A DNA stretch of 64,000 nt, taken from IMG/VR virus record IMGVR_UViG_3300050034_000334. One strand, 5' to 3'. This stretch comes from a virus (taxonomy: Duplodnaviria; Caudoviricetes). Below are positions 18,989-64,000 of the stretch, piece after piece (the stretch's first letter is position 1; every line of letters begins with the position of its first letter). The position numbers and the translations under genes were made by a program. The notes under the pieces are model-generated. The model saw only the letters and a list, made by a program, of their open reading frames with translations. It did no database searches and was not told where the DNA came from.

Positions 18989-19213
18989 ATGAACCACAAC
19001 GGCGCATACTGTGTACGCCACGCATGGAACGCCCTCACGCAAGGGCCGTGCTGCACCTGCACGCCGGAAGGCAGCACGATCACGCTAGACGACGGCGAGT
19101 ACCTTGCGCTGACCAGGATCACCGATAGCGGCTGTCCGATACACGGGATGAGCAGCGCACACGTACCAGACCCGCACGAGGGCGCAAGCACGAAGGGAGG
19201 GCCGAAGCTGTGA
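18989..19213 (+). CDS. Small hypothetical protein (Cys/His-rich)
   Basis: First of four tightly coupled short + ORFs in the GC-richer island. Confidence 0.45.
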   Translation: MNHNGAYCVRHAWNALTQGPCCTCTPEGSTITLDDGEYLALTRITDSGCPIHGMSSAHVPDPHEGASTKGGPKL

Positions 19214-19428
19214 TGGGTAGGCTGATTGGTAGTGATTTTACTCAGGTAGTCCAAACGCGCAAAACACGCTGCTCTGAGTGCGGCTTCAATATCCCTGTCG
19301 GGGATACCGCTCTGGAGTCTATCAAGGACGGCAAATGTGTCAAGCGCGTATGTGGGGAGAATTGCCGGATGGACTTCGATGATCGTTTCTGGCGTGGAGT
19401 TGCGGCCAGAGACAAGAGGCTACGCTGA
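19210..19428 (+). CDS. Small Zn-finger-like hypothetical protein
   Basis: CSEC and CGENC motifs; stop/start overlaps on both sides. Confidence 0.6.
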   Translation: MMGRLIGSDFTQVVQTRKTRCSECGFNIPVGDTALESIKDGKCVKRVCGENCRMDFDDRFWRGVAARDKRLR

Positions 19429-19691
19429 TGACCACGCCCCTGCTCATCATCCTGATCGGCGCCGTGCCGGTAGCCATTCTGAGCGCATGGCTGGACCACG
19501 CATGGCGCAAGCGGCACCCGAAGCAGATCAGCACGGCGGAGTGGCTGCGTAGGATGCGTGCTCTTGAACCTGGAGTGCCCCCTGTGCGTCGCTACGAGGG
19601 CGCGGTAGGGGTAAGCACACCAGAACGCCCTGTGAGGGATAAGAAACTGGCGCTGGTGGTCAAACCGGCGAGAAAGAACGGGACACAATGA
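19428..19691 (+). CDS. Small membrane-anchored hypothetical protein
   Basis: N-terminal hydrophobic helix 'LLIILIGAVPVAILSAW'; coupled overlaps. Confidence 0.6.
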   Translation: MTTPLLIILIGAVPVAILSAWLDHAWRKRHPKQISTAEWLRRMRALEPGVPPVRRYEGAVGVSTPERPVRDKKLALVVKPARKNGTQ

Positions 19692-19906
19692 AGACTCCAT
19701 CAGGGATTGAAATTGAGATAGGTCAGGTTTGGCGCGGTCCTGATTATGGCGTTCAAAATCGCGTGGGACACTTTGAGGATGGTATTGTCTGGCTGTACCG
19801 GAAACATTGCAACGGGCCAGATCGCATCCCTGTGAGTCGATTCAACGGTAAGCGTGGCGGATATGCGCTGTCGGCCGGCAACGATGCGACAGAGGAGAGC
19901 AAGTGA
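19688..19906 (+). CDS. Small hypothetical protein
   Basis: 'IEIGQVWR...' type phage protein; ATGA overlap. Confidence 0.6.
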   Translation: MKTPSGIEIEIGQVWRGPDYGVQNRVGHFEDGIVWLYRKHCNGPDRIPVSRFNGKRGGYALSAGNDATEESK

Positions 19907-19932
19907 TCGCCGCTGGTCTGGCTGCTTACTTC

Positions 19933-20424
19933 CTATCTGTGATCGCCGCTTCGCACGGCCTGTAAGGGCACGAAAGCCGGGGCGTCATGCTCCGGCTTTC
20001 GTGCCTGCTCTGCGCGATACTTCTCGAACCAGAAAACTACCGGCGTTGTATCGATACTTAATTTGCCAAAACGCATCAAGTGGTGTACGTGCGTGTAGGT
20101 TGATATTGTTGGGATGCTGTTCGCAAAATAGGTGAGTATAGAGCGGAAGCCTTCGACATTTGTATCTGCCTTTAGTATGTTGCATCTGACACAAGCAGGG
20201 TAAAGATTGTCTTTATTATCGTTTTCGGGTGAATAAAGTTTCCCGGTTTCCCGTGTCTTTGTGTACCCTGCTTTAGTAACTTCGCCGTGTACATATTCTG
20301 TTTGGCGGCGAACTGGTTCCACATGATCGGCGTGCCATTTGTCGATCAACTCCTGCCCACAATAAGCGCATCGACCGCCAAACATCATGCGGATTCTTTC
20401 GCGCTCTGGCTTGCTAAGGATCAT
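19933..20424 (-). CDS. HNH endonuclease
   Basis: 'GRCAYCG...WHADHVEP...NLYPACVRCNILK'; ATGA-coupled to the endolysin. Confidence 0.85.
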   Translation of the reverse strand: MILSKPERERIRMMFGGRCAYCGQELIDKWHADHVEPVRRQTEYVHGEVTKAGYTKTRETGKLYSPENDNKDNLYPACVRCNILKADTNVEGFRSILTYFANSIPTISTYTHVHHLMRFGKLSIDTTPVVFWFEKYRAEQARKPEHDAPAFVPLQAVRSGDHR

Positions 20425-44238: not shown

Positions 44239-44542
44239 GGTCTCTTTTCCTAGGTGGAACCCTCAGCATACGACAAACCAAATTCACCATCGGTCGGATC
44301 TGTTCACATACATCGGCAGGAAGATTTCCCACCTTGACGCAGAAGTAGAATCCGTTGTAAACGTCGACTGTCCAAGTCACTTCGCGAGTCGAACCTGTGA
44401 TTCTGTAGTTTGGTGCACCGGCATCCGAAAACCTCCACTCTCCCCTGAGAGGTTCGTCAAGAGGGATGGCCACTTGGAGAATTCGCCAAATGGTTGTCAG
44501 TTCGGAGCCGGTTGGCCAAATGATGTTCTTGACTCTTCTCAT
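44177..44542 (-). CDS. Hypothetical protein
   Basis: 121 aa, ATGA-coupled to the helicase stop. Confidence 0.55.
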   Translation of the reverse strand: MRRVKNIIWPTGSELTTIWRILQVAIPLDEPLRGEWRFSDAGAPNYRITGSTREVTWTVDVYNGFYFCVKVGNLPADVCEQIRPMVNLVCRMLRVPPRKRDHEEEGIGSAAESSGGHPEFG

Positions 44543-46029
44543 AACAGATAAGGGTCGATCACTTCATTGAGAGTCTTGTCCAGCATGTCAGTGGACATTA
44601 CAACTCCACCATTCACAAGACCGGAATCTGAAGAAACCCCAATCATGAATGGAGGGACGTTGCTCCGCCGCCGATTCTTGCAGGTGCCCAGCTTGATCTT
44701 CTGTTGGGCTTCTAAGTCTGAATCCGAAAACGTAAACATACAACCATCAAGCGACTTGTCGAATTCGGAATACTCGTAGACTCCCTCCATCTCCCATTTT
44801 CCTTCGTGCTTTTGAGCATCAGTGTATCCATCTCTATTGCCCTGAACTGGAGTCAGCAGACAGATCTTGCGCTTGTTTCCGAAGTTGAGGCACCACGATT
44901 TGGCATTCTTGATGAGACCGTTCATGACCTGGCGGTCTTGGCCCTTGGAGTACGAAGTATCGAGGAGAGTGAAGTAGTCGATGAGCAGTAGATCCACCGG
45001 TGCAATCTGTTGCTGAAGCTCCACCTGAGCCTGAACTCCTTCCAGGGTACACTCGGAAGGTTGGCGAACGATGATATCCCCAGGAAGATTGTCAAGATCA
45101 GGTGCGACCACATTGAAGAGAAAGTCTTCCTGATCCGGAGTGAGATTGCCATCCTCAAGGTCATTGATGGAGATCTTGATATTGAAGTCCTTGAACTTCT
45201 CGTGATGACTGTGAATCACCGCATAGATGTTGTTTTCTTCCTCACAAGATTGCTCCAAAGGGATGTGCATCACCTGGAATCCCTGGTTCGCGACGTTGTA
45301 GGCAATGGTGCGGCACAGGGAAGATTTACGCTGACCAGCGTATCCTAGAACTCCCCAGAAGTTGCCACGCTTGAATCCTCCAATGATCTGGTCAATCGCC
45401 GCAATACCCGTCTTCATGGTTAGAGAACCTTTCAAGTTCTCCCTCTTGGCCAGGTTGTAGTTGTCACGAAGTTCGCTGGAAATTGCCTTGATGCTTCCGC
45501 CCACACTCTTCTGCTGAGAGGTCAGAATACCATTCTGAATCTGACCCAGCAGGTATACGAGGGCATCCTTGTTTCCAGCCAGCTTCTTCTTGGTCTTGGG
45601 ATCCTCAACTGCACCATTGGCAATCTTCTTGGTGGCCTCTATAACCGCATTGAGTTTCCAGTTCTCAAACTCGTCAGTCTTGTCACGCAGGACTTGATAG
45701 AGATCCTGAGCATCGAATCTCCTCAGTTCAGAGGCGGACTTCAGATCCTGGTAATTGGACAGAGCTTCTTGCAAACCCTCGCTCTTGTCCTGCTTGAGGA
45801 CGATGTCCTCAATCATCTTGTAGGAGGGAGCTTCCCGGTGGGCTGTCCAGAAATTCCAGATCAGTTGCATCAGGGGAAGTTCGTAATCGGGCATACAAAT
45901 GGCCCGAATCTGAACCATGTTGTCGGATACCCAGCGAAGGTTCGCTTTCACGCGCTCGGATTCCTCTGGGGAGGAGTCCTTACGCAGTAGAGAGTGGAAT
46001 AAATTCCAAAAATTGACCGTATCTGCCAT
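44539..46029 (-). CDS. dnaB: DnaB-like replicative helicase
   Basis: 'TGIAAIDQIIGGFKRG...GYAGQRKSS...IPLEQ...LLLIDY...PVQGNR...KNRR' SF4 motifs. Confidence 0.85.
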   Translation of the reverse strand: MADTVNFWNLFHSLLRKDSSPEESERVKANLRWVSDNMVQIRAICMPDYELPLMQLIWNFWTAHREAPSYKMIEDIVLKQDKSEGLQEALSNYQDLKSASELRRFDAQDLYQVLRDKTDEFENWKLNAVIEATKKIANGAVEDPKTKKKLAGNKDALVYLLGQIQNGILTSQQKSVGGSIKAISSELRDNYNLAKRENLKGSLTMKTGIAAIDQIIGGFKRGNFWGVLGYAGQRKSSLCRTIAYNVANQGFQVMHIPLEQSCEEENNIYAVIHSHHEKFKDFNIKISINDLEDGNLTPDQEDFLFNVVAPDLDNLPGDIIVRQPSECTLEGVQAQVELQQQIAPVDLLLIDYFTLLDTSYSKGQDRQVMNGLIKNAKSWCLNFGNKRKICLLTPVQGNRDGYTDAQKHEGKWEMEGVYEYSEFDKSLDGCMFTFSDSDLEAQQKIKLGTCKNRRRSNVPPFMIGVSSDSGLVNGGVVMSTDMLDKTLNEVIDPYLL

Positions 46030-46082
46030 AGAAGGCGAGCACCTTTGGCTCGCCTTCTCCAATACTTGGCAGGTGAGTTTTG

Positions 46083-56280: not shown

Positions 56281-56532
56281 TTACAGAGCAGTATCCTTCG
56301 GAGGCTGAGGCTGCTCTTTGGGAGGCAAGCTAGCAGTCTTGAAGACCGGAGGAGGCAAGTTGGCAGTGAAGCTCTTGAAGTCTGCAATCAGCAAATTCAA
56401 GAACTTGTAGATGAAGACGTACCAACCGCTCGATGCCGTAGTTGGAACTGGCAGAGACTGAATCAAAGCTGAGGCAACCTGATTTACCACGTAGAAAATC
56501 AGAAGCCATTGGACAGGAATTGTTGTCGACAT
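56281..56532 (-). CDS. Small membrane protein (holin-like)
   Basis: Two hydrophobic segments, 'Q...ALIQSLP.PT..S..WY.F.YKF' pattern; the holin role is inference. Confidence 0.5.
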   Translation of the reverse strand: MSTTIPVQWLLIFYVVNQVASALIQSLPVPTTASSGWYVFIYKFLNLLIADFKSFTANLPPPVFKTASLPPKEQPQPPKDTAL

Positions 56533-56634
56533 AAGAACCCCCACTGGAGAGGGGTTGGAAATCAAAAAGAGGGTGTAAGAATCCTCCTCCACAGAGAATC
56601 CCTACACCCTAACCCGCAAAATACTTCAAGTTTC

Positions 56635-57564
56635 TTAGACCCGCTTCTCACCATGAGGCAGTTGCTTCAACGTCCACTTGGCGATCAGTTCGTCCATCAT
56701 CTCAATACTGGATTCGACCTGTCTCTGCTCGTAAGTGCACCTGGAAATTGCGCTGGTCCGGATGTGTTCGTACCGGGTTGTGCCACGAGCGTATTTGCGA
56801 AATTCGTTGTTGCCATTCACGCGAACGATTTCGGTCTGTTCGTCAGCAACCTGATTGTGAAGGTCCAGGATGCTCTGAATGAGCTCATCGCGCTTCCTGT
56901 TCAGAGTGATCTTGTAGGCTTCGCATCCTTCTGTACCCAGTTCGTACGGCAGGAATCCAACGCCAGGGCAGCTACCAACGCGGCAACCGTAGTAGTGGCC
57001 GGTGCCACCGGAGATCTCGAAACCGTGGTGAACCATCTTGCGGCTGGCGTTTGTCTTGTAAAGACCACCGCATACCGGGCAGGTGCCGGTGTTCGTGAGA
57101 TCGATCACGGTCGGATTGATTGCCGGCTTGCGACCCTTTTCGATGAAGGACTTGGTGGACTTCACCAGTTCGGCGAGCATCGCGGCTTCGGTCAGTGTGG
57201 CGATGTACTCAGCCAGTTCCGGAGCATTCTTGACAACCTTCATCCGTTTCAGGAATCCAGGTGTATTTGAGAAAGCCGCGATTCCCAGGTTGTGGCGGGG
57301 ATCGGTATCTGACCAGGTGCAGAAGAGCTCGCTGCCACCGCAGGGATAGTAGAAATCGCGGAGAGGGTCAGAAAGAACCTCTTCAACCTTGTCCCAGACG
57401 TTGGAGATGGTGGACTTGGCGTTCTCGTAATCAACATTCCAGATGTGCTTGTCAGCCAGCCCTGCCTCAAAGATCGCCTTTGCTTCAGCAAACTTCTGCA
57501 CGCTGAGATAGGTGGGAACCTTGCTGTTGAGGAGGATGTCCGTAATTTTTGGGGTGCTGATCAT
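56635..57564 (-). CDS. Hypothetical protein with Zn ribbon
   Basis: 'GTCPVCG...HHGF...SCPG'; GAGG SD and own promoter. Confidence 0.75.
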   Translation of the reverse strand: MISTPKITDILLNSKVPTYLSVQKFAEAKAIFEAGLADKHIWNVDYENAKSTISNVWDKVEEVLSDPLRDFYYPCGGSELFCTWSDTDPRHNLGIAAFSNTPGFLKRMKVVKNAPELAEYIATLTEAAMLAELVKSTKSFIEKGRKPAINPTVIDLTNTGTCPVCGGLYKTNASRKMVHHGFEISGGTGHYYGCRVGSCPGVGFLPYELGTEGCEAYKITLNRKRDELIQSILDLHNQVADEQTEIVRVNGNNEFRKYARGTTRYEHIRTSAISRCTYEQRQVESSIEMMDELIAKWTLKQLPHGEKRV

Positions 57565-57599: not shown

Positions 57600-57992
57600 G
57601 TGAGACGTGGCTCTTTTACTGTGCTGATGACGATTGGCAAAGAACAGTCCCAAAGCCTGGATCAACAAGCCCAAACCAGTAAAGTAGTTTCCAATTGTAG
57701 CTTGGTCCAGATGCTGAGTAATTTTTCCCGGAATAGGATCTGGAACCTCTTTCTTGACCTCTGGAGGAGCAACAGACTTCTCCTCCTCAAAGGGAGCAAG
57801 AGACTTGTTGTGTGACTTGAAAACTGGATGGGGTGCTTGGGCTGCAGGGGCAACGATCTTCGCCTTCGCCTTCTGCTCTTCCTGCTTCAAAGCAGTGACA
57901 GCCTTGTGCTCCACGACTGACTTGTAGATACCGAATCCGCAGATTCCAAAAGCCAAGACCGTGCAGGCAATTGCAAGAGTGAGTTTAGACAT
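57597..57992 (-). CDS. Membrane protein (N- and C-terminal TM helices)
   Basis: Two hydrophobic helices around a Pro/Lys/Glu linker. Confidence 0.65.
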   Translation of the reverse strand: MSKLTLAIACTVLAFGICGFGIYKSVVEHKAVTALKQEEQKAKAKIVAPAAQAPHPVFKSHNKSLAPFEEEKSVAPPEVKKEVPDPIPGKITQHLDQATIGNYFTGLGLLIQALGLFFANRHQHSKRATSH

Positions 57993-58016
57993 CGTATCTC
58001 TCCTTGTACTAGAGAT

Positions 58017-58307
58017 TCAAAGTCTGGGTTGGTGGTGAAGATACTGCTTGACCTTCTCACTCTTCTCCAACACTCGTCTATCCACGTCATCATGAGAGAT
58101 GTCTTCAGCCTGATACAACAGTGTCACATCCCCGATTTCTCGAACTAGCTGCTCTCGATTCGTACCTCGCACCTGACCTGTTGGATCCCAGCTTTCATAG
58201 CCATGGCGAATGATCTTTCCGATTACTTGCTGAGCCTCTCCCATCTCTTCAGACAGGAGAGCTAGACGTTCAAGTTCAGCCGGTTCGAGTTCGTTGGAAA
58301 ATTCCAT
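58017..58307 (-). CDS. MazG-like nucleotide pyrophosphohydrolase
   Basis: 'LSEEMGEAQQVIGKIIRHG...LVREIGDV' EExxE/ExxD pattern. Confidence 0.75.
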   Translation of the reverse strand: MEFSNELEPAELERLALLSEEMGEAQQVIGKIIRHGYESWDPTGQVRGTNREQLVREIGDVTLLYQAEDISHDDVDRRVLEKSEKVKQYLHHQPRL

Positions 58308-58315
58308 AGTGACCT

Positions 58316-61300
58316 CTAACTGCATCCAGTTGTTTGTCCACAATCGTTGCACTTTTCACAGGTTCCGGATCTCACCATGTGCATAGATCCGCAAGCACCA
58401 CAGGAGTTCCCAGTGAAACCACTGCGCTTGGCTTCACTGGCCTCTGATACGGTTGGCAAACGTGTTTCTTTGTCTACTAACAGCCCCAATGATTTCACCT
58501 TTTCCTTGTCCTCAGGTTTGATGTGGGCAAGGTCATAGCGATCCAGATAGGTGATTGCCAACTCACGGAAGACATAATCCATCAGAGAAGTGGCATTCTT
58601 GACATAGCTGGAACCCTGAACAAATCCAGAAGGTTCAAACTTGGTGAAAGTGAACGCATCCACAAACTCCTCGAGCGGAACGCCGTACTGCAATCCCAGA
58701 CTGATGGCGATAGCAAAGCAGTTGAGGAGAGAACGCAAGGTTGCTCCCTCGCGACTGACATCGATGAAGACCTCTCCCAACCTGCCATCCTCGTACTCCC
58801 CGGTGTGCAGATAGAGGGAATGATCGCCAATTTTGGCCTTCTGTACAAATCCATGGCGACGGTATGGTAGACGCTTGCGAAATCCTCGAGCTAATGCTTC
58901 TGCCAAGACAGCAGCTTTTGTGTCGTTGTTGGCACCGCTGGTGAGCACTTCAACTTCCTTCTCATCCAGGCCCTCCAGCAGCTGCATGTTTGTGGCTAGA
59001 GCCTGTGACATCTTGGATCCGTCACGATACAGAGCCACTGCTTTGATGCCAAGTTCCCACGCCAACAGATGAATGTCATTGAAGTCTTGTTGAGTAGAGT
59101 TGGCCGGGAGATTTACAGTCTTGCTGATAGCTCCTGAAATGAAGGGTTGAACAGCTGCCATCATCTCCACATGAGCACGTGGAGAGATGAAACGAGTACC
59201 ATTTTCACCACACTTGTTGGCACAATCGAACACGGCCAAGTGAGCATTCTTCAAGGCCGGTGCCCCTTCGATGGTCTTCTCGTTCTCGATGTGCTTGAGG
59301 ATCTCAACCACTTGTTCGTCCGTGTACCCCAAGTTCTTCAAGGCCGGAGGGACAGACTGATTGACTATCTTGAAGTATCCTCCACCGGCCAACTTCTTGA
59401 ACTTCACCAGAGCATAGTCAGGTTCCGCTCCCGTCGTGTCGCAATCCATCACCAACCCGATGGTCCCTGTCGGAGCCAAGCAGGTGCTCTGGGCATTCCT
59501 CAACCCGAATTCCTCAACCTGAGACACTACCTTGTCCCAGATGTCACGAGCCTGAGTGACCAGCTTTCTTGGTCCACGATAGAGAAGTTTCAGACCCACA
59601 GGAGTAGTTGAAAGCCCATCGTATCCAAGCTCTCCATTGTAAGCAGCCGAACGATGGTTCCGCATCACTTTCAAGACAACCTCTCGATTTTCATCATAGC
59701 CAGGAAACACTCCCAACTTCTGAGCCAAATCTGAGGATGTCAGGTACGATTCACCTGTCATGATGGCAGTGATGGCCGCAGCCCAGTTTCGGCCGGTCTC
59801 ACTGTCATAAGGAAAGCCCAGCTGCATGAGCATGGCGCCAAGGTTCGCGTATCCCAAGCCCAGGGTGCGGAACTTGTATGACAACTCAGCAATCGAGGGT
59901 CCTGGGAACTGAGCCATCGTTACAGAAATCTCTAGAGCGATGGTTGTCAAACGGCAGCAATGGCGGAAGGCCTCGACGTTGAACTCTCCGTCTTCCAGGA
60001 ACTTCACGAGATTTGAGGAAGCCAGATTGCAGGCAGTGTCATCCAGGAACATGTACTCGCTGTTGTGTATAAACACACCAGAAAAGTTGTCGTGACCATT
60101 CACACAAGACGGTTTTGACGAAGTGAAAACAGCAAAGTTGTGGGTATTGTCTACCGTACCATCGTAGACGTCTTCATTACCACAGAACTCTACCGAAACA
60201 ACCGTATGGTTGAAGTTGACCACGGCCTCTTGTAGTAACTCATCAGTGGGGTACCAACGAACAATAGTGTCTTTTGTGGGAAATTTCTTCACTCCAAGTT
60301 GCTTTGCTACATCTCGTAGTTCTTCCCAATTTTCTAGAGAAAAAGAAACTCCATTATCTTGAAAAGTTCGAGCAACCTCAGCAATCATACCCTCGATTAA
60401 ACGCTTCGAGTGACGTTCTCCAAACATTTGTTTACCAAGTGGAGATCTCTGACATTCAGTACCACAGCAAATCTGATCCTCCAAAATGGTGATGAAATTA
60501 CCACGGCATATAGGGCAGCAACGCTCAAATCGTTCAGCAGTTACTGTACGACCAATATGCCTACCCTCTGATCGCATTTTTGTTTGTGTTTCTCTTATAG
60601 ATCTACTCAACTGTTCGTGTTGTTGGTGGTCTTCCCATCTAGAAACTGCAGAATTACTCATATTCTGTTTGGAAACTTCACTGTGCTGTTTTCCAAACAT
60701 AGGGTTAAGTTCACCAGTGATTGATTTTGAAATGTTGGCACGCCATTCATCATTCATTAAACGACGGGCTGGATTATTGTCACCAAGCATTGATTCCCGA
60801 TGCAAAGCTGCATGATCCTTCGCAGACAATAGCTTGAAATTTTGTGGGTTATCATTCAGAGCATCAAAATCAGAGTGATGAATGTGATAACCTTCCGGTG
60901 CTTGACCAAAAAAGAAATCGTTAATTAAACGATACTGCTGAGCCCAACGAGTACCTCCCCACACATTTCTACGACGCGTGGCTCCTTTTCCATTTTGGAT
61001 TATGGAAGAGTGAAAAGGCATAAGAGAATCACCAGGTTGTAGGTCTATAACCTTTCGGTATGAACCATCCCGCAGCATCATAAGTTCGTCGTCAGTAACA
61101 CGTAGGCTACTTCCATCGTCAAACGTAACGCAGAAAATGGGAGCATTAGTTCTTTTAACTCCAATATTCCACATCAATTCTATTGAAGTCTTTTGCGTCC
61201 TGTGATTCCTGGTAAACACAGGCACTTCTGTTCCTACCAAATCTCTAATAGGAACCGCTGTACGACCATCTGCTACAGCCACCAAAGTCTCCCCAGTAAC

Positions 61301-62710
61301 ACAGCACGGATTGCTGGCATTGATTCTTCCGGAATTCAGACAAGTGTGCCAGTCATTGATGGTCGTGTCGAACTGGATCCCAGGATCTGCACAAAGGAAA
61401 GAAGCCCGGTTGATCTGATCAAACAACTTCTTGGCCTTAAGAGTCTTGGCCACTTCCCCGGTGGTGCGGAAGGTCAGATTCCAGTCCCTGTCCTTTTTGA
61501 CGGCATGCATGAATTCATCTGTGACACGAATTGTGTTGTTGGCATTCATGCCTGAGACTGTCTGGTATGCCTCTCCCTCCCAGTTCAGATCGTACAGAGG
61601 AAGATCGTCAGTGAAGTCAGATTCAGACAAACGAGTCAGACACTGCCCTAGAAATGCTCCAGGCACTCCCATTTTTCTGGCATGGCTGATGACTTTGGCA
61701 AGCTCCTTGTTCTCTTTCGGATTTGCCTTCAAAGCCAAATCTTTGGAAGTGAAGGTGTTGTAAGCCTCCAGCATCTCTCCCCAGATGGTGCGAAGGAGTT
61801 GACTGCCAGCAGCCATTGCAACAACCTTGCGCTCTTCATTCACCTTCCAGTTGATGAAGGCCTCTACATCGGGATGGTCCACATTGAGAACAACCATCTT
61901 GGCTGCTCTGCGGGTGGTTCCTCCAGACTTCACTCCTCCGGCTCCGACGTCTCCCACCTTCAACCAAGACATGAGACCTGAGCTCTTTCCGCCGCCGCTC
62001 AAAGGTTCTCCATATCCACGCAGGGCAGAGAAGTTGGATCCTGTTCCGGAGCCATACTTGAACAAGCGAGCCTCGCGATGGAACAGGTCGAAGATTCCTC
62101 CAGGATTGACGAGGTCGTCTTTCACTCCCTGAATGAAGCAGGCATGAGGCTGAGGACGCTTGTACGCAGAATCGCTCACGGTCAACTCTTTGGTGCCGTC
62201 GTCGACATAGTAGTGACCCTGTGGATCTCCCTCAATTCCGTATGCCCAGTACAAGCCGGTATTGAACCACTGAGGGGAATTGGGAGCAACGTACTGCATC
62301 ACCACCATGTAGAGCATCTCGTCGTAGTAGGCTTGGGCGTCTTTCTCTGAAGAGAAGTATCCGTATTCCTCTCCCCACCCAGTCCAGCAACCTACGATTC
62401 TATGAGCAGTCTGTCTCACATCAGTTTCGTAAGTGATCCCATCCGGATGGTCCAGCTTGGAGGCCCACTCGGTGGAGTACTTGCTGTTGTAAAGGGAGTT
62501 GGGGTGGTTGTGATTCACTCCTTGCCGGCGGAAATACTTCTGGGCAAGGATATCCAAGGCAGTCTGAGACCAGGATTCTGGCACGATGACATTGTCGTTC
62601 TCAAAAACCACAGAATTGTCTGGTCTAACGATGTTGGAGCATCTCCGTATGAAGCTGATGCCCTCTAAAGGCGACTGTCCGGCCTTGGTGAAAATTCGCT
62701 TTACCTTCAT
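58316..62710 (-). CDS. nrdJ: Class II (B12-dependent) ribonucleotide reductase, intein-containing
   Basis: 'PNSPQWFN', 'HACFI', 'SGTGSN', 'KSGGTTRRAA', 'ASNPC|SEY', 'ACNLAS', 'APTGTI', TSCPD-like C-terminus with a Cys cluster. Confidence 0.95.
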   Translation of the reverse strand: MKVKRIFTKAGQSPLEGISFIRRCSNIVRPDNSVVFENDNVIVPESWSQTALDILAQKYFRRQGVNHNHPNSLYNSKYSTEWASKLDHPDGITYETDVRQTAHRIVGCWTGWGEEYGYFSSEKDAQAYYDEMLYMVVMQYVAPNSPQWFNTGLYWAYGIEGDPQGHYYVDDGTKELTVSDSAYKRPQPHACFIQGVKDDLVNPGGIFDLFHREARLFKYGSGTGSNFSALRGYGEPLSGGGKSSGLMSWLKVGDVGAGGVKSGGTTRRAAKMVVLNVDHPDVEAFINWKVNEERKVVAMAAGSQLLRTIWGEMLEAYNTFTSKDLALKANPKENKELAKVISHARKMGVPGAFLGQCLTRLSESDFTDDLPLYDLNWEGEAYQTVSGMNANNTIRVTDEFMHAVKKDRDWNLTFRTTGEVAKTLKAKKLFDQINRASFLCADPGIQFDTTINDWHTCLNSGRINASNPCCVTGETLVAVADGRTAVPIRDLVGTEVPVFTRNHRTQKTSIELMWNIGVKRTNAPIFCVTFDDGSSLRVTDDELMMLRDGSYRKVIDLQPGDSLMPFHSSIIQNGKGATRRRNVWGGTRWAQQYRLINDFFFGQAPEGYHIHHSDFDALNDNPQNFKLLSAKDHAALHRESMLGDNNPARRLMNDEWRANISKSITGELNPMFGKQHSEVSKQNMSNSAVSRWEDHQQHEQLSRSIRETQTKMRSEGRHIGRTVTAERFERCCPICRGNFITILEDQICCGTECQRSPLGKQMFGERHSKRLIEGMIAEVARTFQDNGVSFSLENWEELRDVAKQLGVKKFPTKDTIVRWYPTDELLQEAVVNFNHTVVSVEFCGNEDVYDGTVDNTHNFAVFTSSKPSCVNGHDNFSGVFIHNSEYMFLDDTACNLASSNLVKFLEDGEFNVEAFRHCCRLTTIALEISVTMAQFPGPSIAELSYKFRTLGLGYANLGAMLMQLGFPYDSETGRNWAAAITAIMTGESYLTSSDLAQKLGVFPGYDENREVVLKVMRNHRSAAYNGELGYDGLSTTPVGLKLLYRGPRKLVTQARDIWDKVVSQVEEFGLRNAQSTCLAPTGTIGLVMDCDTTGAEPDYALVKFKKLAGGGYFKIVNQSVPPALKNLGYTDEQVVEILKHIENEKTIEGAPALKNAHLAVFDCANKCGENGTRFISPRAHVEMMAAVQPFISGAISKTVNLPANSTQQDFNDIHLLAWELGIKAVALYRDGSKMSQALATNMQLLEGLDEKEVEVLTSGANNDTKAAVLAEALARGFRKRLPYRRHGFVQKAKIGDHSLYLHTGEYEDGRLGEVFIDVSREGATLRSLLNCFAIAISLGLQYGVPLEEFVDAFTFTKFEPSGFVQGSSYVKNATSLMDYVFRELAITYLDRYDLAHIKPEDKEKVKSLGLLVDKETRLPTVSEASEAKRSGFTGNSCGACGSMHMVRSGTCEKCNDCGQTTGCS
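60062..61303 (-). mobile_element. Intein (414 aa) with HNH homing endonuclease, inserted at NPC^SE
   Basis: Begins 'CVTGETLV', ends 'VYDGTVDNTHNF...VFIHN' with +1 Ser; internal 'HIHHSDFDALNDNPQNF...H...H'; AT-rich. Confidence 0.93.
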
Positions 62711-62895
62711 GCTATTGTGTCCTTGGGTATGGGGGATTTCGAGGGTCAGAAATCGTACGTGATGATTCAATACTCAGCCTATGAAAGATTGGTTACAAGT
62801 TACCGATTACCAAGGTGGTTACTCACTCGGGTGCGTATTTCTTCATGCGGCGAAAGCATCGCCAAACGCTGGTCTCACTGGTAGGATGGATAAGT

Positions 62896-64000
62896 ATGTC
62901 AACTCCACGAAAGCAGTACATTGCTATCAAGAACTGGGATAGGTACCAGTGTGACAGCAAAGGACAAGTCAGAAATACTCCCAGCCCTTGGATTAAGGAT
63001 TGGTGTAATAAGGAAGACGACTATGAATACACACAATTGAATAGTTCTAGAAGGTACACATACGATGCTCTACGGAGATTGCGCGGAAGGTATGGGAAAA
63101 ATCCAACTCACGATCTTGAGTACCTTCGCAATCAGTTGTCACTGAAGAAGGGAGATCGTGAAAATCTAGGTCCAACCATCAAGAAACTATGGGAACTCCG
63201 ACTTGTGGTAATTGTGTTTTCTGAAATCGGAGATGACTTGCTTGCTGATGATATCGTGCCGGAAGAAGATATCGATTTTGAACAGAAGAGCCCATCGTTA
63301 GCCCACGGTGCGCCCATCGTTAGCCCATCGTTAGCCCACGGTGCGCCCATCGTTAGCCCATCGTTAGCCCACGGTGCGCCCACAACCCTCGATGTAACTT
63401 CCATAGAACTGCTACCCATTTCCGAGAAGAGAGAAGAGAAAGAAGAAGAAGAAGAGGAAGAGGAAGAGGAAGAGTCTCCACCTCCTCCAGATGATGATTT
63501 GATACCTGGTGAAAGCAGGGAGAACCCTGCACCCCTCTTGTCGTCTTCGTCGAGTTCTTCTCCGGTTGCGTTTGGCGTCGGGCCTTGTCCTCCGGACTTC
63601 GATTTTGGCGCGTACAAGATCCCTATGGATTCCCGCAATTTGCCTCATCCTAGTTTCTGGAATCCTCTTCCGGCTGATTGGAAAGACGGATACCGCGTTT
63701 GGAAGAAGGGGAAGGATGACGAAGCCGAGAAAGCCAGATTCAAGTCAAGGCCTCCAGCTAAGGCTGAAGGCAAGAAAACTTCCGAGTATCAAGCAACTCA
63801 GGGAGTTTTTGATCCTGCTACATACGCCAAGAAGATCGGCAAGTACTCTGCGGAGTTTGTTCACGACCTCTGCAAATGGGAGTGGGATCTTAACGAGGAC
63901 CATGATCACTACTGGTGCTGGATTGTAACTGAAGAGGATCTCATCAAGCAGTTTGACAAGATCATCAAGCACAAGCAGGAGCAAGAGAAGAAGTCTCAAT
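62896..64000 (+). CDS. Putative phage replication initiator (lambda O-like organisation), 3'-truncated by the window
   Basis: Hand translation from ATG 62896 (alternative 62845), open to the window end: 'MSTPRKQYIAIKNWDRYQ...PWIKDW'. The 'IKNW..yQ...PWIK' motif is typical of phage initiators. The minus-strand ORFs in the track are its shadows. Confidence 0.6.
   Translation, partial: MSTPRKQYIAIKNWDRYQCDSKGQVRNTPSPWIKDWCNKEDDYEYTQLNSSRRYTYDALRRLRGRYGKNPTHDLEYLRNQLSLKKGDRENLGPTIKKLWELRLVVIVFSEIGDDLLADDIVPEEDIDFEQKSPSLAHGAPIVSPSLAHGAPIVSPSLAHGAPTTLDVTSIELLPISEKREEKEEEEEEEEEEESPPPPDDDLIPGESRENPAPLLSSSSSSSPVAFGVGPCPPDFDFGAYKIPMDSRNLPHPSFWNPLPADWKDGYRVWKKGKDDEAEKARFKSRPPAKAEGKKTSEYQATQGVFDPATYAKKIGKYSAEFVHDLCKWEWDLNEDHDHYWCWIVTEEDLIKQFDKIIKHKQEQEKKSQ
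63289..63387 (+). repeat. Nine tandem 11-bp units (33-bp higher-order repeat), iteron-like
   Basis: AGCCCATCGTT / AGCCCACGGTG / CGCCCATCGTT repeated three times; the last unit is degenerate. Confidence 0.9.
63424..63474 (+). repeat. 51-nt pure polypurine tract
   Basis: GAGAAGAGAG...GAGGAAGAG, 36 nt after the 11-bp repeats; encodes a Glu-rich run. Confidence 0.85.

Follow-up and report, generated by a model that had tools for sequence, protein, structure and literature searches.

The closest described parallels to the locus reported here come from the phages SPP1 and lambda. In SPP1, the origin oriL lies inside gene 38, where repeats bound by G38P are found together with an AT-rich unwinding element, while G39P serves as the loader and G40P as the helicase (PMC6316719, PMC5737612). 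The origin of lambda (ori-lambda) is likewise found within a gene, occupying the central part of gene O (PMC7466680). Both origins have been established experimentally (PMC7466680, PMC6316719, PMC5737612).

Here, we describe a locus with a similar layout at the end of a 64-kb stretch of phage DNA. This stretch, which was analysed over its full length of 64,000 nucleotides, is referred to as the window. The locus constitutes a precise origin candidate of about 300 bp, with a presumed cognate initiator and a presumed loader.

A candidate initiator gene at a switch of coding strand

The gene in question is cut by the end of the window. Its full product, a protein of 392 amino acids named P0002, was recovered via an identity search and extends 24 codons past the window end. 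P0002 is encoded on a contig 342,198 bp in length, which makes the source of the window, a soil phage, a jumbo phage. The following features of the window describe the gene and its setting:

44539 to 46062, minus strand: DnaB-like helicase gene (PF03796 DnaB_C, E 7.9e-9), likely client of the loader
62712 to 62895, no strand: divergent intergenic region between the ribonucleotide reductase gene (minus) and the initiator gene (plus), taken from the open reading frame lists; point at which the coding strand switches
62896 to 64000, plus strand: putative replication initiator or replisome organiser gene, with an ATG start, cut by the window end

The gene found 5' of the putative initiator gene encodes a class II ribonucleotide reductase (RNR) with an HNH intein. 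It lies on the minus strand, as do the remaining large open reading frames back to about 20 kb. In L001, a near-identical relative, the genes 3' of the initiator gene are on the plus strand, which bears out the statement in the first-pass annotation that coding switches strand at this gene. A promoter and terminator scan of the intergenic region did not find a convincing sigma-70-type promoter. In addition to the helicase, a RecA gene is encoded within the window.

Cumulative GC skew was calculated over a 74-kb composite of the window and the downstream sequence of L001, out of at least 342 kb. The minimum was found in the 61-62 kb bin, within 2 kb of the repeat array described below, and the curve rises on the plus-strand side. 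This minimum would fit an origin, and the skew inflection considered by the first-pass annotation, but it falls at the coding-strand switch, which confounds it as an origin signal over the 74 kb covered. Apart from this, the skew reaches a maximum near 19-20 kb, where the coding strand does not switch.

A predicted winged-helix domain, a disordered linker, and a small helical domain

P0002 was predicted to consist of a single winged helix (residues 30-110) preceded by a short element, a disordered linker, and a small helical C-terminal domain. The parts of the gene encoding the domains and the distal part of the linker are:

62896 to 63225, plus strand: N-terminal domain (amino acids 1-110), presumed origin-binding domain; strand-helix element, then winged helix
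63475 to 63585, plus strand: Ser/Pro-rich linker, poorly conserved (57% identity to L001, with many gaps) and with low pLDDT
63586 to 64000, plus strand: C-terminal domain with a small helical core, presumed to recruit the loader or helicase

The N-terminal domain was modelled with confidence by AlphaFold2 from an alignment of 143 sequences (mean pLDDT 94.1, pTM 0.85). The model starts with a short strand-helix, IKNWDRYQ (the IKNWxRYQ element), which is followed by the winged helix. When compared to known structures with the exhaustive aligner VIA, the domain reached Z-scores of 5.0-5.6 to winged helices, including those of the DnaD N-terminal domain, the N-terminus of primosomal DnaB, ORC/Cdc6, and a RepA_N initiator, and also those of LexA, Fur, and MetAP inserts. 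Since these scores are under 6 and spread over many winged helices, they indicate a generic fold without specific kinship. Foldseek gave no match of the domain in the PDB at E≤0.001. By language-model features, the clusters closest to the domain were unnamed viral ones, followed by DUF4373 and Phage_rep_org_N (0.91-0.92), which serves as a lead only.

Sequence searches with P0002 gave no Pfam match at E≤1, no NCBIfam match, and no significant PHROG match. Similarly, no homologue was found among longer proteins, no hit was found in a scan of viral contigs with the single protein, and a DNA search of GenBank phages with the locus gave no match.

The model of the C-terminal domain was partly confident, with pLDDT above 90 for helices 98-111 and 125-149. 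A profile of the C-terminal domain of the family introduced below (alignment columns 501-600) matched P0002 and P0003 at 27.6 and 32.2 bits, respectively. Judged by this profile, the C-terminal domain of P0002 is a divergent member of the commonest C-terminal type in the family, which itself has a weak match to phrog_2514, annotated as a DnaD-like helicase loader.

Nine 11-bp repeats that the encoded peptide does not explain

Between the two domains, the gene contains three features that together make up the origin candidate:

63290 to 63388, plus strand: nine head-to-tail 11-bp units of the form GCCCAYNGTnn, arranged as 3 x 33 bp; candidate iterons
63389 to 63423, plus strand: spacer of 36 nt between the repeats and the purine tract
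63424 to 63474, plus strand: homopurine tract of 51 nt, encoding EKREEKEEEEEEEEEEE; candidate unwinding or helicase-loading zone

The count of nine 11-bp repeats in the first-pass annotation proved correct and can be refined, as a 33-bp unit made of three related 11-mers is present in three perfect copies. Tandem Repeats Finder detected the 33-bp unit at 63289-63382 (2.8 copies, 100% matches, score 188), as well as the 11-bp period within the array (76-77% matches). Read in an 11-bp register from 63290, the core GCCCA is invariant in all nine units. The longer motif GCCCAYNGT is present in eight, with the ninth unit retaining the core only. Three further occurrences of this motif were found elsewhere in the window, which is the level of chance outside the array (2.95 expected over all 64 kb). 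The array itself was not found a second time, either in the 64-kb window or in L001, including 10 kb of downstream sequence. No DnaA boxes were visible on direct reading of the array.

The array spans nucleotides 394-492 of the gene, directly after the N-terminal domain, in the part encoding the inter-domain linker. It is translated into three copies of PSLAHGAPIVS, with GCCCA being read in all three frames. An 11-amino-acid protein repeat accounts for a period of 33 bp, but not for one of 11 bp. Synonymous codons were resampled for the array peptide using the codon usage of the window itself. The identity at a lag of 11 bp was 0.73 in the array, compared to 0.35±0.05 in the resampled sequences, none of which reached the observed value (0/5000). 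When a resampled unit was copied three times, the highest lag-11 identity was 0.67, compared to 0.74 observed (0/20000). As resampling does not reproduce the sub-period, it is a property of the DNA, and a repeat that exists purely at the protein level was rejected.

The spacer that follows is itself partly conserved: in a pairwise alignment, its first 25 nt or so are kept in L001, inside a stretch that has otherwise diverged, and its word CCATAGA is found at the same place in the relatives L004-L006, where it is read in a different frame. The homopurine tract lies at nucleotides 529-579 of the gene, exactly the 51 nt located by the first-pass annotation 36 nt past the repeats. It has a GC content of 43% and consists of a run of GAR codons encoding poly-Glu. 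No other purine or pyrimidine run of at least 25 nt was found in the 64 kb (shuffled sequences: mean 16, maximum 27), and purine asymmetry reaches its window-wide peak at this tract. Its stability is close to what the peptide demands, with P=0.03 locally and P=0.09 gene-wide in synonymous resampling. Since poly-Glu coding accounts for this stability, it is by position that an unwinding role would be assigned to the tract in this genome.

An undescribed family in Acidobacteriota phages with phased repeats at the same place

A profile search (E≤0.001) showed the N-terminal 110 residues to be the conserved part of a family with 351 cluster representatives, clustered at 50% identity. The C-termini of its members are highly varied, and the linker is the least conserved part. 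None of 143 members had a Pfam match (E≤0.01) or an NCBIfam match, a tblastn search of 50,697 GenBank phages with the family gave no match, and the family profile found no relatives among PDB sequences. Among species-representative genomes, all eight family matches were in metagenome-assembled genomes of Acidobacteriota (Terriglobia, Acidobacteriaceae, Granulicella). By these searches, the N-terminal domain defines an undescribed family in phages and prophages of Acidobacteriota, for which neither Pfam nor NCBIfam holds a model.

The DNA of 24 relative loci was obtained. The repeat and stability counts cover 20 non-redundant loci, and the synonymous resampling of the stability covers 19. The closest relatives, L001 and L002, share 76% amino acid identity with P0002 and carry the same nine-unit array. 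In both, the core GCCCAY-GT is retained, while position 7 is changed in every unit and other positions are altered in concert; the array peptide differs, reading PQLAHSRPIVR. Comparing repeat numbers among relatives, as had been suggested at the outset, thus gave nine units in each of these three genomes, with a constant core and drift at the other positions.

More distant relatives are about 50% identical, in the N-terminal domain only, and carry other repeats at the same position of the gene. In L004-L006, AACSGCTG is repeated seven times at 11 bp after the N-terminal domain, while L003 has a 10/21-bp period, and L016, L019, and L021 have a period of about 10-11 bp. Wherever these phased repeats were resampled, they exceeded the synonymous expectation. 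Right after the N-terminal domain was also where 15 of the 20 loci had their strongest short-period repeat overall, although in many of them its period was 5, 6, 12, or 15 bp. In the proteins of 157 members, the 10 strongest internal repeats include 8 with a period of 11 amino acids just after the N-terminal domain, in sequences that are unrelated to one another (Cys-rich, His/Thr-rich, and others).

The DNA following the repeats was also distinctive in these loci. In 11 of 20 loci, including L003, L006, and L007, the stability of 50-mers reached its locus-wide minimum directly after the repeats, and the post-repeat tract was less stable than whole-gene synonymous resampling allows (P<0.01) in 8 of 19. 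Rare AT-rich codons (AGA, GTA, ATA) recur in this tract among the relatives. The tract of L001, like that of the window, is a GAR run encoding poly-Glu. For the family, there is therefore a good case for a putative unwinding element, while in this genome position is what argues for it: the homopurine tract would take the place that the low-stability tract has in the relatives, and as such be a candidate unwinding element.

Repeats and N-terminal domain exchanged as one cassette

Sliding identity between the window and L001 delimited one further feature:

62941 to 63570, plus strand: exchangeable specificity cassette, comprising the N-terminal domain from about codon 16, the repeats, the purine tract, and the Ser/Pro linker

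Outside this cassette, the RNR gene, the intergenic region at 62712 to 62895, the first 15 codons of the initiator gene, and the C-terminal domain are 98-100% identical between the two phages, whereas identity drops to 48-77% from about 62946 to about 63600. For codons 16-125, synonymous divergence is saturated (pS 0.69, dS about 1.9), with a dN of 0.19; by comparison, dS is 0.04-0.11 in the C-terminal domain and 0.003 in the RNR gene. Saturated dS in a near-identical background indicates that this part was replaced through recombination with a distant homologue and is under purifying selection. In these alignments, the repeats have travelled with the putative DNA-binding domain, as one cassette exchanged between near-identical phages.

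In lambdoid phages, the N-terminus of O and the iterons form a type-specific module, while the C-terminus is conserved. The cassette that distinguishes the window from L001 mirrors this module.

Neighbouring genes and fusion partners point to replication

The window ends before the gene downstream of the initiator gene, and its identity was taken from L001, whose flanks are 98-100% identical. In L001, as well as in L006, the initiator gene is directly followed by a gene for a DnaC-like AAA+ loader (phrog_50) that overlaps its stop codon. Matches of this loader in the PDB were at the level of the Walker A motif only. Other relatives have comparable neighbours: a DnaB-like helicase gene adjoins the initiator gene directly upstream in L007, a primase-helicase gene is found downstream of the family gene in L016 and L017, and a helicase gene in L018. 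The C-terminal domains of family members match PHROGs annotated as replication initiation protein, O-like, DnaD-like helicase loader, primosomal protein, and replisome organiser. The function of the family is thus better indicated by its fusion partners and neighbours than by its fold.

A candidate in-gene origin and its alternatives

We consider it fairly probable that the locus is an in-gene origin of the lambda/SPP1 type, served by a new family of winged-helix initiators, with nine binding sites spaced one per helical turn and an adjacent zone for opening or loading. The lambda-like origin proposed by the first-pass annotation thus finds computational support in the DNA-level repeats, the winged helix, the loader and helicase neighbours, the layout of the relatives, and the cassette. 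The gene at 62896 would encode the replication initiator, and the origin of the phage, or one of several, would lie within its own coding sequence. The N-terminal winged helix would bind the nine head-to-tail GCCCAYNGT sites, and as these are one helical turn (11 bp) apart, the bound proteins would line up on one face of the DNA in an O-some-like complex. Such a complex could strain the adjoining spacer and homopurine tract, leading to their opening, after which the C-terminal domain would recruit the DnaC-like AAA+ loader, the product of the following gene, and the DnaB-like helicase of the phage. Later replication may shift to a recombination system of the RecA/SbcCD type, as in SPP1. We infer that the protein binds the repeats, that the tract unwinds, that the C-terminal domain recruits the loader, and that replication starts at the locus. 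A phage of 342 kb may have several origins, or may replicate mainly in a recombination-dependent manner.

One alternative is that the repeats and the purine tract are a coding minisatellite and nothing else, part of a disordered and fast-evolving linker without a function at the DNA level, which arose by slippage of a 33-bp unit that itself once came from an 11-bp unit. The encoded peptide is indeed of low complexity (PSLAHGAPIVS in three copies, poly-Glu, Ser/Pro), conservation within the family is lowest in the linker, and the purine tract of the window stays within the coding demand of poly-Glu. Slippage in a disordered linker could also yield the in-frame periods of 6, 12, and 15 bp seen in many relatives. 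However, 11 is not divisible by three and the peptide does not call for an 11-bp period (0/20000), which recurs in unrelated sequences, both in separate lineages and in SPP1 oriL. Moreover, the nine copies are fixed in the window, L001, and L002, where the core is kept while other positions drift, and the tract following the repeats in relatives uses rare AT-rich codons beyond expectation. We consider the minisatellite explanation unlikely.

Two further explanations accept that the array is bound by a protein. The array could be recognised by the product of its own gene in a role other than initiation, such as an autoregulatory roadblock, fork pausing or a secondary function as at SPP1 oriR, or a centromere-like function as in the 11-bp parC repeats of plasmid R1, with the true origin located elsewhere in the 342-kb genome. 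The logic of the binding sites and the joint exchange of domain and repeats speak for cognate recognition, not for initiation as such; some partition sites, too, typically consist of direct repeats of 11 bp, and the skew analysis covers a fifth of the genome. The neighbouring genes, however, encode loaders and helicases rather than partition proteins, the order of repeats followed by a low-stability tract is that of functional origins, and the 64-kb window plus 10 kb of downstream sequence contains no second array, so that such a role appears distinctly unlikely. Finally, the repeats could be bound by another factor of host or phage, and the gene product could be a DNA-binding protein unrelated to replication, given that P0002 has no annotated family and that many transcription factors share the winged-helix fold. 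This is very improbable, as members of the family are consistently fused to replication-type C-terminal domains and encoded beside loaders and helicases, and as the repeats co-vary with the N-terminal domain and do not resemble DnaA boxes.

Extending the in-gene origin to the relatives, we tentatively suggest, at somewhat short of an even chance, that these proteins form a large initiator family of Acidobacteriota phages and prophages, in which the origin of each member lies in its own linker-coding DNA, and that in the present jumbo-phage lineage the N-terminal domain and iterons form a swappable origin-specificity cassette, exchanged by recombination between phages that are otherwise 98-100% identical. 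Swapping the cassette could perhaps allow escape from replicon competition, or from parasites and defences that target the origin.

Significance

To our knowledge, mapped origins are rare among jumbo phages, and there is essentially no experimental replication biology for phages of Acidobacteriota. In-gene origins are textbook knowledge from lambda and SPP1, and the locus does not add a new principle in this respect. What is new is the undescribed protein family in Acidobacteriota phages, the jumbo-phage setting, the cleanly delimited specificity cassette, and the new host range. In addition, the window and L001 represent two natural phages with hardly any difference outside this cassette.

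Comparison with known origins and initiators

As positive controls, identical scans were run on lambda gene O and SPP1 gene 38. In lambda, the top periodicity was 23-24 bp and corresponded to the annotated iterons (O nucleotides 349-433), after which purine asymmetry reached its highest value in the locus; the scan placed the iterons at nucleotide 355 of the gene and the purine-asymmetric AT tract at nucleotide 428. In SPP1, the top periodicity was 11 bp at nucleotide 360 of gene 38, formed by four to five head-to-tail units of rrAAAcGACAc, and the least stable 50-mer of the locus was found at nucleotide 411. The corresponding positions in the present locus are nucleotide 394 for the repeats and 529 for the tract.

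Lambda, including its variants in Stx phages, shares with the present locus the order of iterons followed by a strand-asymmetric, A/G-rich tract, located in the linker-coding middle of the gene. In lambda, the loader gene P lies immediately downstream of O, as the loader gene follows the initiator gene in L001. The sites themselves differ, however: lambda has four palindromic iterons of 18-19 bp, spaced about 23-24 bp apart and bound by O dimers, whereas here nine 11-bp direct repeats are contiguous. The tract of lambda is also truly AT-rich, unlike the one found here with its GC content of 43%. With regard to the proteins, P0002 had no match to the lambda O family (Pfam Phage_rep_O) or any other Pfam family at E≤1, and hhalign gave a probability of 0.2% for the family profile against lambda O.

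Among replisome organisers of the DnaD type, the N-terminal domain resembles the DnaD N-terminal domain (8ojj, Z 5.2; 2vn2, Z 5.0) and the N-terminus of primosomal DnaB (5wtn, Z 5.5), with scores on par with those to unrelated winged helices. The DUF4373 (PF14297) and Phage_rep_org_N (PF09681) clusters were the nearest named ones by language-model features (0.91-0.92), with a Pfam match in 0 of 143 members.

Iteron plasmids, with initiators such as RepA, RepE, and pi, offer another candidate likeness, since their direct repeats are bound by a winged-helix initiator beside an unwinding element. Their initiators have a WH1-WH2 architecture and their repeats measure 17-22 bp, whereas here a single winged-helix domain of 110 amino acids accompanies contiguous 11-bp repeats. 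With one winged helix, P0002 falls outside the WH1-WH2 class. Unlike in these plasmids, the candidate origin lies inside a coding sequence, and a dedicated loader is encoded alongside.

In comparison with SPP1, the present locus has more repeat units (nine, against about four or five), a tract that is a homopurine GAR run of 43% GC instead of being AT-rich, and a genome of at least 342 kb instead of 44 kb. The G39P loader of SPP1 is not known to be an AAA+ protein, in contrast to the DnaC-like AAA+ loader of the present lineage, as found in L001. When P0002 and its relatives were compared to the G38P family, hhalign gave a probability of 2%, with only a 16-column IxIxNYxxYQ motif in common. 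This type of motif is located after the winged helix in G38P and before it in the P0002 family, and the IKNWxKYQ element of the family may be a permuted version of the element that follows the winged helix in organisers of the G38P type.

The likenesses to SPP1 concern the layout of the locus. In both, repeats with an 11-bp period are found in the organiser gene just after the N-terminal domain, and the tract following them is purine-rich on the coding strand, that of SPP1 being A-rich and of low stability. In SPP1, as in the present lineage, the loader gene comes next, and SPP1 also has a toolkit for recombination-dependent replication (PMC6316719, PMC5737612). The first-pass annotation had regarded an initiator-type origin alongside a recombination toolkit as notable; this is not the case, as the combination is normal in SPP1 and lambda. 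On these analogies, oriL in gene 38 of SPP1 would be the closest likeness to the candidate origin described here, more so than lambda.

A shared DNA word and repeats in the linker region of relatives

In the family of the putative initiator (351 cluster representatives sharing its winged-helix N-domain), the linker that follows this domain is, in many of the loci compared, encoded by DNA carrying repeats and then a low-stability tract. A DNA word, TAGAGTAGA, was found to be common to four separate lineages. In each case the low-stability tract begins with this word, which encodes R-V-(D/E) by way of the rare codons AGA and GTA. A long array in a fifth relative translates to SASVSASVSASGSGSGSGS, at the position that the linker occupies in the family, and is an extreme case among the family's repeat regions.

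Features in the linker region of relative loci
L006:6415-6465, low-stability tract with TAGAGTAGA
L024:4291-4340, low-stability tract with TAGAGTAGA
L007:6381-6430, low-stability tract with TAGAGTAGA
L017:4315-4370, low-stability tract with TAGAGTAGA
L022:4394-4480, long array with a 6/12-bp period (CAGCTTCAGTTT..., with GGTTCA four times)

Divergence from the sister phage and genome landmarks

Comparison with the locus of the near-identical sister phage (L001) revealed short islands of 75-85% identity at 56496-56645, 57396-57545, and 57846-58145 of the window, in sequence that is otherwise 95-100% identical, a pattern in the alignment that suggests further small exchanged cassettes. The class II RNR gene (58316-62711, compared with L001:5421-9816) differs at 46 nonsynonymous sites but at no more than 3 synonymous ones when counted by the simple NG86 method, and identity dips locally across 59946-60095, close to where its intein ends on the C-terminal side. 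Such a pattern is odd in a housekeeping enzyme and may have arisen from a short frame-shifted stretch or from intein turnover.

Cumulative GC skew reaches a clear maximum at about 19000-20000 of the window, where the sign changes from plus to minus; the genes to either side of it all lie on the minus strand. This maximum could mark the boundary of a module, a terminus-like point, or another landmark of replication, the second in the window.

Every genomic copy of the family, found in GTDB MAGs (L018-L025), belongs to Acidobacteriota (Terriglobia, Acidobacteriaceae, Granulicella), and an integrase adjoins the family gene in L003, another relative. The jumbo phage therefore likely infects hosts of this phylum, and many relatives are temperate.

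Comparison with the SPP1 replisome organiser

The N-domain of the family starts with a strand-helix motif, IxIKNWxKYQ (window 62917-62949, aa 8-18), while a very similar motif, IxIxNYxxYQ, is located at the end of the N-domain in the family of SPP1 G38P, the replisome organiser encoded by gene 38 (L028:470-514, aa 98-112). This motif pair was the only hhalign match between the two families. Residues 8-43 of the window protein aligned with the C-terminal part of a 173-position PHROG profile, its sole and weak PHROG match. Judged by these alignments, the two families may share an organiser domain that has undergone circular permutation.
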